Positions 7,496-34,314 of a stretch of 64,000 nucleotides of DNA are shown here, piece after piece. The translations under genes and the position numbers were made by a program. Position 1 is the stretch's first letter. The number at the start of each line of letters is the position of its first letter. The stretch is taken from assembly GCA_046542255.1 (NCBI GenBank), contig JBKHBT010000005.1, forward strand, positions 13,593 through 77,592, in the 5' to 3' direction. Under the pieces are notes generated by a model. That model saw nothing but the letters and a program-made list of their open reading frames with translations, was not told the DNA's origin and did no database searches. This DNA comes from Candidatus Zixiibacteriota bacterium. GTDB taxonomy: Bacteria > UBP14 > UBA6098 > JBKHBT01.

Positions 7496-7937
7496 CTATT
7501 TCATCTTTGAAATAATCGAAAAGGTCGATAAGTTCGATTGTTTCGGAATTCTAGTGCGAACTTCCTGTTTTTCGAGTTCGGCAAGGATGTCTTTTACTCG
7601 GTGACGATAGAATTCTTGAAAGGTCTTAGTAAGTTTTTTGGGATTATAAAACTTATCTATGAATGCAACGAATTGCTGAATTTTGTCTGACAATTCTTGA
7701 TTGAGTTTTAATAGGTCTTCTTTCTTAAGGCCATATATAAATGCACATACATAACACATAATATATTTAAAGCAAAAGGCTTTACTGATGTTTTAGCCTG
7801 AGAAGTATGACAATGCGGAACATCGCATTGTCTGAAGCATTTTCTAATTTGCTTTTCAATTTGGACTTATCGATGTAAATATTGCCAGGCCTTATACGTA
7901 ATGAAATATCCTGACACTCGTTTTTATTGTTTAGCAT
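7496..7937 (-). pseudogene. Small hypothetical gene region interrupted by the ~107-bp element
   Basis: GGAG RBS plus ATG at 7937 encodes 34 aa (MLNNKNECQDIS...KLENA), runs into the element and stops at 7782. An open frame (KKEDLLKLNQEL...SKMK) resumes beyond the element to 7496. Whether the two halves were one gene is unproven. Confidence 0.4.
7727..7834 (-). repeat. ~107-bp hairpin element, copy A
   Basis: CAGACAATGCG-ATGTTC-CGCATTGTCATACTTCTCAGGCTAAAACATCAG...AT-rich...ATGGCCTT; homologous to 33281-33386 and 34126-34232. Confidence 0.85.
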
Positions 7938-32510: not shown

Positions 32511-33280
32511 CTATCTTGGGCATAAAGATATCGTTTCGGGTTCAATTTCCATTATAGAAAATTCTGTATCGATGGCTTCTGCTGTAAACTCACCAATTGA
32601 TATCTCCACCGGGAAAGTTTCAATTTCTAAATCATCCACATGAAATTCTGATTCTCGTCCACAGCATGAATTGCCAAATTCATCTGTTTTGATCGCGTAG
32701 ATACTTTTCTTTATCCCATAATTTGCTTTACTGCCTGTTATTCCGTATCCGCTTTCCTGAATCGATACCGAGAATGATTTTTCATAGTCATTTTCAGATA
32801 TAAAATCACTATTATAGGTTTTGGAAAAGCCTAATGTTCCCGAACTATCGAAACTTGCCAGGAAAATGTCTCCATAAGTATCTCCCAAAATTAAGAAGTT
32901 TTCATCATCGATAATTTCGATTTTATTCGATGAATAAATTCTCTCGATATCAGAGTATTTACTCCACATTGGATCCAATGTATTGGAAAATTTCATGAGT
33001 ATAATATTAATAATAGTATCCGCTGCGACAGATGGATTAGATTGGCCTGCGGCAATAATTGCGTTTTCATTTAATAGGCCGATATCTAGTATCTGGATTT
33101 CTGGCAAATGGCCAATTCCGATGTTATTTAGCAAGGTGAATTCAGAATCGAATTTACTAATAAGCATTCTACTAGACTCGAGATCGGAAATAATCTTTCC
33201 CAAAATATATATATTCCCATCAGCATCCATTTCCATATCGATACCCTTAAAATTCAGTTCAAAAGCATCGATAATATCAC
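32511..33280 (-). pseudogene. 3' remnant of a beta-propeller-like secreted protein gene, 5' end replaced by the hairpin element
   Basis: Propeller-type repeats (DADGNIYILG, KFSNTLDPMWSKY, FLASFDSSGTLGFSKTY, YAIKTDEFGN). The only ATG start (33308) lies inside repeat copy B. Confidence 0.6.
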
Positions 33281-33386
33281 CAGACAATGCGCTGTTCCGC
33301 ATTGTCATACTTCTTAGGCTAAAACACCCTTAAAGCTGTTGGCTTAAATGGATTCTGCATTATTTATTGATGTCCTTTTCGGCCAA
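33281..33386 (+). repeat. ~107-bp hairpin element, copy B
   Basis: CAGACAATGCG-CTGTTC-CGCATTGTCATACTTCTTAGGCTAAAACACCCTTAAAGC...TCGGCCAA. The right boundary is approximate. Confidence 0.8.
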
Positions 33387-34314
33387 AATGCTCGATTGAA
33401 CATGGAGAAGTTCATTTCTCAGACGCTCGAAGCTCATTGGCATAGTTTTCTGTACAGAAAGATGGTAAAATCCTTGTATGATAAGGGTATAGGCGATAAA
33501 GCAAATCGAGATATGTGCTCTAATGCGCTCTTCTGTCCAGTGATAAATCGGACGCATTCGAAGGTCGTGTTTGCTGACTCGAAAGGCTTCTTCGATCTGC
33601 CACAGCGAGCGATATCGCGATAATAAATCTTCCGGTTTTTCGGCCATATTATTGGTGATTATGCCGTGAAGTCCGTCCCAGGCTGCTCTCAAGAATCTGT
33701 TTTTCATGCCTTTACGAACTGTTTTTAGTTTTGCGGCTACAATAAAATTGAAGTCGTGATGCTCCATTTTTTGAAGACTATTCTCGGTAAACATCGCGCG
33801 ATCAGCCACTATTGTTACTTTTGCGACATTGTAGCTCTGCTTCAATTCGCCGACCATATCCAGCAAAGTGTGGCCTTCATAAATATTGCCAGGTAAAACC
33901 CTGTAACTTATTGGCATTCCACAGTTTGTGGTAATAAGCGCCAGCATGATCTGGGTCTCATTGACTTTGTTATCCTTGCTGAATCCGGATTTCCATTGTT
34001 CGTCTTTTCGAGTTTCTTCGATGATTTCATCGAATTCAGCAATAATAGCATTTGCAAGATTAACGAGCACCTCGGTTTCACTATCAGAAACGCCCAGTCC
34101 GACATGTCTGACGATCTTCTCTTTCAAGGCCGTATGTTTTTATAATATTTGTATTTTAATATATACAATACAATGACTTTTCTGATGTTTTAGCCAGGAA
34201 GTATGACAATGCATAAACATAAGCATTGTCTGACTGACCTTGTCGCCCCTTCGATAGGATTCGACAATCTGCACCGATGTTTTACCCATCTTTCTTTTTC
34301 TTTCGCACAAACAT
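33360..34314 (-). pseudogene. IS1634-family transposase remnant (frameshift, insertion, internal deletions, truncated C-terminus)
   Basis: MFVRKKKK / GKTSVQIVESYRRGDKV / KEKIVRHVG, GFSKDNK...QIMLAL...GMPISYRVLPGNIYEGHTL, VADRAM, DGLHGIITN, YRSLWQIEEAFRVSKHDLRMRPIYHWTEERIRAHISICF. A possible native left end is near 34435-34448 (tentative). Confidence 0.88.
34126..34232 (-). repeat. ~107-bp hairpin element, copy C, inserted in the transposase 5' region
   Basis: CAGACAATGC-TTATGTTTAT-GCATTGTCATACTTCCTGGCTAAAACATCAG...ACGGCCTT lies between codons for ...RRGDKVS and KEKIVRHVG. Confidence 0.85.

Follow-up and report, generated by a model that had tools for sequence, protein, structure and literature searches.

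We analysed a short repeated sequence, hereafter the hairpin element, in the genome of an uncultured Zixibacteria bacterium. The window, that is, the whole stretch of DNA analysed, comprises 64,000 nt of contig C46 (positions 13593-77592) from a 3.57-Mb, 170-contig assembly with 40% G+C that is 93% complete. An initial annotation of the window had described three copies of the element, here called A, B, and C. All three lie at or near the positions it gave, and they match far beyond chance: a repeat search paired copies A and B over 68 nt with 87% identity, and genome-wide E-values from a covariance model were as low as 1e-20. The common start CAGACAATGC, the inverted repeat GACAATGC...GCATTGTC, and the continuation ATACTTC(N)GGCTAAAACA were confirmed in each of them. 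Judged from its junctions, the element is a lineage-specific, high-copy, non-autonomous mobile element that integrates whole at (C)AG|A. The copies in the window and the genes they touch are as follows.

7496..7937, minus strand: small open reading frame (ORF) split by copy A, with an N-terminal part at 7835-7937 (...KLENAS) and a C-terminal part at 7496-7719 (EDLLKLNQ...)
7720..7834, minus strand: copy A, full length, 115 nt including the flanking CAG; 3' end GGCCTTAAGAAAG; covariance-model match C46:21312-21426, 123 bits
32511..33280, minus strand: gene without its 5' end, abutting the CAG end of copy B, with an apparent start codon inside the hairpin
33281..33368, plus strand: copy B, truncated; element positions 1-88 only according to the nhmmer profile, the 3' 25 nt being missing
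33369..34118, minus strand: body of an IS1634-family transposase remnant (KIVRHVG...QSSILAEKDI); NCBIfam NF033559, 188 bits in two stretches; Pfam DDE_Tnp_1; paralogs on C164 and C32
34119..34232, minus strand: copy C, full length, 114 nt including the CAG, with a variant hairpin, within the IS1634 transposase gene
34233..34293, minus strand: first 20 codons of the IS1634 transposase (MGKTSVQIVESYRRGDKVSQ), cut off from the rest by copy C

Copies A and C both interrupt reading frames that can be restored precisely. Copy A, whose hairpin (a 9-bp stem with a 6-nt loop) occupies 7805-7832, interrupts an ORF, as had been proposed: removing the element together with one AG yields a single frame of 108 codons (...KLENAS|EDLLKLNQ...), for which no family match was found. 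Copy C does split the IS1634 transposase, after codon 20; the break lies at KVSQ|KIVRHVG and not, as first described, at KVS|KEKIVRHVG. When copy C and one AG are removed, the sequence reads ...GDKVSQ|KIVRHVG..., colinear with KVNQRIVRHVG in the 70% identical paralog on C164, which also provides the empty counterpart of the site (C164:1589-1348).

Copy B has a different history. Its hairpin lies at 33283-33310, and by blastn it belongs to the subfamily of C26:93-208. It stops at about element position 88; the sequence that follows (GATGTCCTTTTCGGCC) is transposase reading frame, which the paralog on C32 continues for 38 more codons (...QSSILIEKTTKNK...). The GGCC formerly taken as the end of copy B is therefore IS1634 transposase coding sequence. 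The transposase remnant has an internal deletion, lacks about 30 C-terminal codons and the end of the insertion sequence (IS), and is joined to copy B at a 9-nt microhomology, AATAAATAA. On the other side of copy B, the gene at 32511-33280 is indeed beheaded, as had been noted, and has no family match in NCBIfam or Pfam. One deletion would account for all three: the 25 nt that copy B lacks, the missing IS end, and the beheading of this gene. Since copy B is truncated and fused by a deletion and copy C is a simple insertion at codon ~21, the two do not bracket the IS1634 remnant as a unit; from their joins, they are two independent copies, one of which turned into a deletion endpoint, and not a composite element.

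Definition, copy number, and distribution of the element

The count of three proved far too low. With a profile made from 86 non-redundant copies, 257 places in the genome were matched, 162 of them full length and many of the others cut by a contig end, while blastn gave 236; blastn, nhmmer, and the covariance model together place the number at 236 to 257. The matches sum to 24 kb (0.67% of the genome). Of the 340 contig ends, 52 are located within a copy and 80 no more than 150 nt from one.

The unit measures approximately 113 nt (111 nt plus a shared AG) and can be written CAG-ACAATGCG(loop)CGCATTGTC-ATACTT...GGCTAAAACATCAGTAAAGCC...(AT-rich)...GGCTTTAAAAGAG; the majority consensus of 146 flanked copies is CAGACAATGCGCTGTTCCGCATTGTCATACTTTTCAGGCTAAAACATCAGTAAAGCCTTTTGGGTATATATATTAAGTATTATATATATGTTATATATATGGCTTTAAAAGAG. 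When these 146 copies were aligned, the 5' boundary fell at C-A-G (C in 119, A in 142, G in 141) and the 3' boundary at ...T-G-G-C-T-T-T-A-A-A-A-G-A-G (final G, A, and G in 137, 143, and 135). Conservation drops sharply outside CAG and GAG, and the flanks are unrelated, in agreement with the earlier observation that homology stops at the CAG. At the other end, the boundary had been set too early, at GGCC(TT/AA): the element closes about 7 nt further on, in AAAAGAG (GGCTTTAAAAGAG), and the limits of copies A and C are therefore 7720-7834 and 34119-34232. The 11-6-11 layout described for copies A and B was right about the 6-nt loop but not about the arms, as the stem is 9 bp and the outer CA does not pair with the following AT. 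For copy C, an 8-nt spacer had been reported; its hairpin actually has an 8-bp stem and a 10-nt loop.

The two ends of the element, AGACAATGC and CTCTTTTAAAG, are unrelated to each other, and no terminal inverted repeats (TIRs) exist between them. Over a 62-nt core, 28 copies equal the consensus and 24 are one base off; every full copy is unique, owing to microsatellite-like variation in the AT-rich middle. Most truncated copies have internal deletions in this AT-rich part and keep both ends; the idea that truncation breakpoints are enzyme-like cuts was rejected on these grounds. No longer element with the same ends was found in the assembly. Three divergent copies (C169:15568, C100:25805, and C46:5760) were considered as autonomous elements and rejected: they have only the 5' half in common with the element and form a sister subfamily located in gene-3' regions. 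At C169:15400-15568, the divergent relative is followed by at least four tandem 24-nt units, GCGCACTTCGGCATGCTCAGCACA, downstream of a sigma-factor gene. The genome also contains a second dispersed repeat, which we call rep2, of about 110 nt (ATACCCAGATTCAGTGTTAAATTTATG...CGAAGCGGAGCTTCGG); it occurs at C139:8877-8987 and some 40 more places (for example, C41:17266-17372, C156:12410-12519, and C94:9695-9806), often beside copies of the hairpin element.

Outside this genome, the element is nearly absent from the collections searched. It was found neither in 40 relatives by blastn, nor in any of the class's 25 other genomes by a covariance-model search, nor in 185,579 species representative genomes by an exact-core scan, nor among the plasmids of PLSDB. 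The viral contigs of IMG/VR gave only two matches, both attributable to chance and located inside a phage gene, and Rfam, scanned with the locus and a consensus copy, gave only chance-level matches. The only public contig outside the genome that carries the element is a 1.2-kb contig from the Joint Genome Institute (JGI) metagenomes, Ga0102934_1126825 (hereafter L043). It contains an IS1634-type transposase gene with a full copy and an abutting 3' half copy (825-999), together with a third, inverted copy at the contig end (1-72).

Insertion sites and target

We compared filled and empty versions of five sites. All follow one rule, ...C-AG-N... becoming C-AG-ACAATGC...AAAAG-AG-N, and AG (CT on the other strand) is the only dinucleotide common to the empty site and both junctions. 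Namely, C3:217 is filled where C23, C159, and C8 are empty (...ACAATC-AG-AAGTATCC...), C8:38100 is filled where C109 is empty (...CATTACC-AG-CTATGC...), and C22:18645 is filled where C34 is empty (...TAAGC-AG-ATAAGG...). The sole IS110-family gene of the genome (a DEDD transposase gene, C119:7822-8917) is split at LQTIP|GVG by a minus-strand copy at C119:8426-8537, its CCAG|GAATAG having become CCAG-element-GAG-GAATAG.

A scan for target-site duplications (TSDs) of 2 to 8 nt at any boundary offset gave only background levels. The earlier statement that the element has neither TSD nor TIR thus stands, except for the one AG common to target and element, and so does its corollary that this is not a classic miniature inverted-repeat transposable element (MITE). 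The base preceding the left AG comes from the target (C in 81% of copies, otherwise T or A, and G inside arrays), and no association was found for a duplication of the base after AG. The target logo is weak, W-H-C-AG|A-W-A-W, or W-T-W-T-CT-G on the other strand, and is similar to TTGTCT|G, the end of the element itself, with which the target preference for A at +1 and +3 (on the strand written from CAG) agrees.

The element had been thought to lie always at gene breaks. Across the genome this does not hold: of the 146 flanked copies, 130 fall outside all ORFs with 100 codons or more, gene-splitting copies being counted as outside too. By the same crude ORF calls, about 89% of the genome is coding. 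Copies also occur inside genes, including an ORF and transposase genes of the IS1634, IS110, and IS3/IS481-like types. Head-to-tail arrays with a period of 109-110 nt are present on C62, C28, C125, C155, C26, C52, C71, and C150. Adjacent units have one AG in common, the array junctions reading AAAAG-AG-ACAATGC. Units are 98-99% identical within an array versus ~88% between arrays; arrays therefore appear to grow by local duplication.

Taken at the sequence level, these junctions make it almost certain that we are dealing with a mobile, non-autonomous element. The opposite view would be that the repeat is not itself mobile, being either a structural or regulatory sequence (a terminator-like hairpin with an AT-rich tail resembling a promoter) spread by recombination or duplication, or the scars of ordinary IS ends. 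Several observations are in keeping with it: the hairpin, with ATACTTTTC behind it, resembles a weak terminator, most copies are intergenic, and the array units point to local duplication. Yet coding sequences, and IS paralogs that also exist empty, have received whole units by precise insertion, and these filled/empty pairs, as we read them, already contradict a non-mobile repeat; copies also show no orientation preference relative to neighbouring genes. As for scars, no longer element bears both ends, and a search for the core as the TIR of a known intact IS was negative: the ends of the IS1634 paralogs (…TGTAGTGCCCCG…) and a 14-bp TIR found in this genome, CCCAACTTCCACAA, are unrelated to it. 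We regard a non-mobile repeat or IS-end scars as most improbable. The suggestion of an orphan transposon end is not supported either, given two defined ends, insertion of the whole unit into single-copy and paralogous sequences, and no longer element with these ends.

The same observations bear on whether the junctions of the three window copies could be chimeric joins made by the assembler at a repeat. The repeat does break the assembly, as the number of contig ends within copies attests. However, a read is longer than the 113-nt unit, whose middle is variable, and no full copy equals another; frames are restored exactly across copy A, copy C, and the IS110 insertion; the independent JGI contig has the element inside the same IS family; and the 9 nt in common at the fusion of copy B with the transposase are too short for an assembler to join. 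On restored frames, a sub-read unit with a unique middle, and an independent contig, an artefact would be scarcely credible.

Aberrant junctions and solo palindromes

At three junctions, the base that follows one xAG is linked to the 3' side of a second xAG, both lying on one strand. At C148:13220, element positions 1-49, ending in an internal CATCAG, are directly followed by a full copy. On L043, a full copy ending in GAG is followed by a 3' half copy that starts exactly after the internal CAG. Finally, comparison of C129 with C104 shows that 57 nt between two CAGs beside the element have been lost.

Six further sites consist of the palindrome alone, and only in these does a true 11-6-11 layout occur. 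They are perfect 28-bp palindromes, CAGACAATGCG-CTGTTC-CGCATTGTCTG, with CAG on both strands, located as follows.

C102:10043-10070: solo site
C64:11316-11343: solo site
C5:5718-5745: solo site
C148:30-57: solo site
C12:8961-8990: solo site
C169:42222: solo site

The solo site at C148:30 has the left flank and a diagnostic base change of the full copy C129:189, next to an unrelated right flank. For this reason, solo palindromes are probably the footprints of deletions between two head-out copies. Together with copy B, which illustrates the point in the window, this makes element copies breakpoints for deletion.

The solo sites are also a point in favour of another proposal, in which the palindrome is the core site of a Xer-like tyrosine recombinase, comparable to dif or pdif. 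That enzyme would spread or rearrange the copies, and movable modules would be delimited by inverted pairs, B and C for instance. The genome does contain four or five tyrosine recombinase genes, and B and C do lie head-out around the IS remnant. Tyrosine recombinases cut in the spacer, though, and every insertion junction is found where the left arm ends on its outer side, 8-11 nt away from the 6-nt spacer; a half-site is missing at the opposite end of the element, the layout of normal copies is only 9-6-9, copy B is a truncated copy fused by a microhomology deletion with no module boundary, and the relation of C148:30 to C129:189 explains the solos by deletion. A tyrosine-recombinase site, one of the three possibilities named in the initial annotation, is thus very unlikely.

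Element copies also serve as targets for another IS. The contig ends C56:27657, C94:20551, C125:15671, C148:13371, and C166:43085 are each the terminus of a multi-copy IS with the 14-bp TIR CCCAACTTCCACAA, whose interior is absent from the bin; three of these five insertions lie at GGCT(TT)AAA| inside hairpin-element copies.

Predicted structure of the complementary strand

The complementary strand reads 5'-CT|CTTT-TAAAGCC...(AT-rich)...GGCTTTA-CTGATGTTTTAGCCTGAAAA-GTAT-GACAATGCG-GAACAG-CGCATTGTC-T|G, and both junctions on it read T-N-T-C-T|. Folded as single-stranded DNA, it has a predicted hairpin near each end (z = -4.1), and the centroid structure retains both stems. The terminal hairpin alone has a predicted energy of -9.4 kcal/mol (z = -5.6). 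On this strand, the 9-bp/6-nt hairpin is preceded by GTAT in at least 128 copies and by GTAG in 3; TAT is conserved at 90% or more, and G less so. The second stem, TAAAGCC/GGCTTTA, keeps its pairs in 90% of cells in the alignment. Each unit has a single hairpin, and arrays are head-to-tail, with no inverted doublet of the kind known from REPINs or bacterial interspersed mosaic elements (BIMEs), both built from repetitive extragenic palindromes (REPs). RNAalifold returned no consensus structure.

Search for a mobiliser

The element is non-autonomous, and no mobiliser is encoded in the window, as had been noted. Two genes of the REP-associated tyrosine transposase (RAYT) type, which belong to the HUH class, are present. 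The gene at C71:4353-4883 matches NF047646, "REP-associated tyrosine transposase," with 87 bits (cut-off, 80); the one at C137:14220-14708 (L031:1306-1797) scores 72.6 bits and passes Pfam Y1_Tnp. GC-rich REPs consisting of GTAG plus GGGCG..CGCCC hairpins (for example, GTAGGGCGCGGGTCCATGACCCGCCC; about 25 copies genome-wide) lie on both sides of the C71 gene and on the 3' side of the C137 gene, in the latter case exactly at the contig end. The C71 gene with its GTAG REPs is a textbook REPtron in a Zixibacteria genome. The first 27 nt of rep2 also lie directly upstream of the start codon of the C137 gene, and no record of the C137 protein was found among public contigs.

Other enzyme classes offer little. 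No TnpB and no serine recombinase (PF00239) was found in the genome. No Y2/IS91 or Rep-helicase gene was detected, in a Y2 search that was uninformative because its control matched nothing anywhere. The only IS110-family gene is the one broken by the element, and its own ends are unrelated to those of the element. None of the four or five tyrosine recombinase genes forms a unit with a copy. Two tyrosine-integrase genes, one of them broken, lie with a large replication-like ORF at C81:1500-4620, an arrangement suggestive of an integrated element; between the two integrase genes sits a partial hairpin-element copy (its 5' part), an intergenic insertion only.

Both RAYTs are candidate mobilisers, though each has its own, different REPs. 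It should be considered that the bin excludes contigs shorter than 2.56 kb, so the absence of a mobiliser from it is no proof; the interior of the IS with TIR CCCAACTTCCACAA is missing from the bin, and the true mobiliser, if its gene is flanked by copies of the element, may have been lost likewise.

A possible single-strand mechanism

Among the three possibilities first put forward, an HUH/REP/PATE-like element (PATE, palindrome-associated transposable element) fits best, given the GTAT tag and perfect hairpin, the CT junctions, and a hairpin near each end (PMC8266576). A REP is a palindrome of 20-50 nt that follows a conserved tetranucleotide, in most cases GTAG; the palindromes of group 3 are short and perfect, BIMEs are often in tandem, and TnpAREP cleaves at CT, 5' or 3' of the REP (PMC8266576). 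We propose that an HUH transposase of the Y1, RAYT/IS200 type would mobilise the element in trans, acting on the complementary strand. That strand has a REP-like module (4-nt tag plus perfect palindrome) at its 3' end. The enzyme would cleave 3' of a TNTCT-like site at both junctions, and the single strand thus released would integrate at another place, again 3' of a CT site of this kind. HUH chemistry, which leaves a 5'-phosphotyrosine and a free 3'-OH on one strand, could produce every odd junction type described above. From our comparison, single-strand transposition of this REP/IS200 type is a serious possibility, to which we would give slightly less than an even chance.

Several results weigh against it. 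The nearest hairpin-element copy lies more than 8 kb from the RAYT genes, and the other REPs that flank these genes point to a different cognate repeat, given that a REPtron is defined by cognate REPs beside its RAYT gene. The tag is GTAT and not GTAG; in the guide model, the last two bases of the tag (AG) select CT (PMC8266576), and AT would not. Hairpin pairs, counted for structures set by hand, are kept in 92% of cells, which is not above shuffled controls. This last result is neutral for the structures, since the element family is too young for covariation to exceed shuffles; covariation neither supports nor refutes the predicted hairpins.

Orientation is a further difficulty. IS200/IS605 elements are strand-biased, and the hairpin element shows no bias relative to either GC skew (98:94) or the direction of the neighbouring gene (108:85, p = 0.11). 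The GC-skew test is weak, because skew in these 170 contigs mostly follows gene direction (r = 0.82). Finally, target preferences on both sides of the junction resemble the joined right and left ends of the element, which would suit a double-strand recombinase with a 2-bp core.

Such a recombinase is the basis of a competing explanation, in which the element would move as a double-stranded DNA circle. The enzyme acting on an AG/CT core would be a serine recombinase of the IS607 type or else a DEDD enzyme of the IS110 type, guided by a bridge RNA. AG/CT occurs once in empty sites and on both sides of filled ones, tandem units have one core in common, TIRs and TSDs are missing, and 6-7 of 9 positions of the target logo agree with AAG-AG-ACAA, the junction of right and left ends. 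CT is the usual core in work on IS621 and IS110. All the odd junctions would be explained equally well if the left and right junctions and the internal CAG recombined with one another. However, no serine recombinase was found in this genome, and its single IS110-family gene is itself a victim of the element, with unrelated ends. Moreover, IS110 targets are long and specific (11-14 nt) where the sites of the element carry only ~7-8 bits, and the element is too short for a bridge RNA. We consider a circle of this kind unlikely, if still worth keeping in mind.

Returning to transposition by an HUH enzyme, the element might represent a so far undescribed class, the "tailed REP," that is, a REP-like hairpin with an ~85-nt tail that carries a second end, moved as a unit by a RAYT-type HUH transposase; or else its mobiliser might belong to no known transposase family. 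This proposal is a doubtful one, with perhaps one chance in five by our reckoning.

Relation to known systems

The hairpin element is a hairpin-ended element without TIR or TSD that belongs to the sphere of REP/RAYT and IS200/IS605 and is filed in neither family. We do not class it as a REPIN/REPtron, because it does not flank the RAYT genes and forms no inverted doublet, or as a PATE, because no parent IS was found.

It resembles REP/RAYT systems in its hundreds of short, mostly extragenic copies, its short perfect palindrome after a 4-nt tag (GTAT, as opposed to GTAG in REPs), its tandem arrangement as in BIMEs, the presence of two RAYT genes in the same genome, and its junctions at CT, the TnpAREP cleavage site (PMC8266576), a likeness read for the element from sequence only. 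It differs in being a 113-nt unit with one terminal hairpin and an 85-nt tail instead of a 20-50-nt REP or inverted doublet, in that the RAYTs here are flanked by different, GC-rich GTAG REPs, and in inserting whole and clean into genes, which is unusual for REPs.

With IS200/IS605 elements and PATEs, it has in common the lack of TIR and TSD, a predicted hairpin near each end of one strand, insertion just 3' of a short target that is kept at one flank, and another end that closes with a similar short motif. In contrast, the assembly contains no IS200/IS605 copy with the ends of the element and no TnpB, and its Y1 genes are of the RAYT type with other flanks. The IS608 hairpin lies 10-19 nt from the cleavage site, whereas the terminal hairpin of the element is 0-2 nt from its putative site. 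No strand bias was detected for the element, and self-targeting gives tandem arrays.

More distant systems show partial likeness. The IS110 family also lacks TIRs and TSDs and has a CT core dinucleotide common to donor and target, but the target information of the element is far too low, there is no room for a bridge RNA, and the only IS110 gene is a victim. Classic MITEs (Correia, ERIC, RUP, and MITEAba12) are likewise non-coding, ~100-150 nt long, present in high copy number, and able to split genes; unlike the element, they have TIRs and fixed TSDs from DDE transposases. Rolling-circle elements (IS91/ISCR and Helitrons) have a hairpin at one terminus, no TSD, a short target motif, and head-to-tail arrays, but the genome yielded no Y2/Rep-helicase gene in the search mentioned above, and the arrays here look like local duplications. 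Xer/dif (pdif) sites differ in that recombination takes place in the 6-8-nt spacer that separates two binding arms and not at the outer edge of the left arm, where the junctions of the element lie.

Implications

The element is known from one metagenome-assembled genome (MAG) and one short metagenome contig. Unlike most REPs, it offers two sharp ends, many recent copies, and exact filled/empty pairs, and its aberrant junctions all follow one rule, joining 3' of AG/CT. The proposed mechanism is concrete and testable with oligonucleotides and both RAYT proteins. If the tailed-REP proposal were true, this would be the first sequence-level record of a RAYT-type insertion, 3' of TNTCT and without duplication. 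In practice, as 15% of contig ends fall in a copy, the element breaks the assembly, and masking it is advised when Zixibacteria MAGs are annotated. For the organism itself, the element inactivates genes, those of other transposases included, and seeds deletions.

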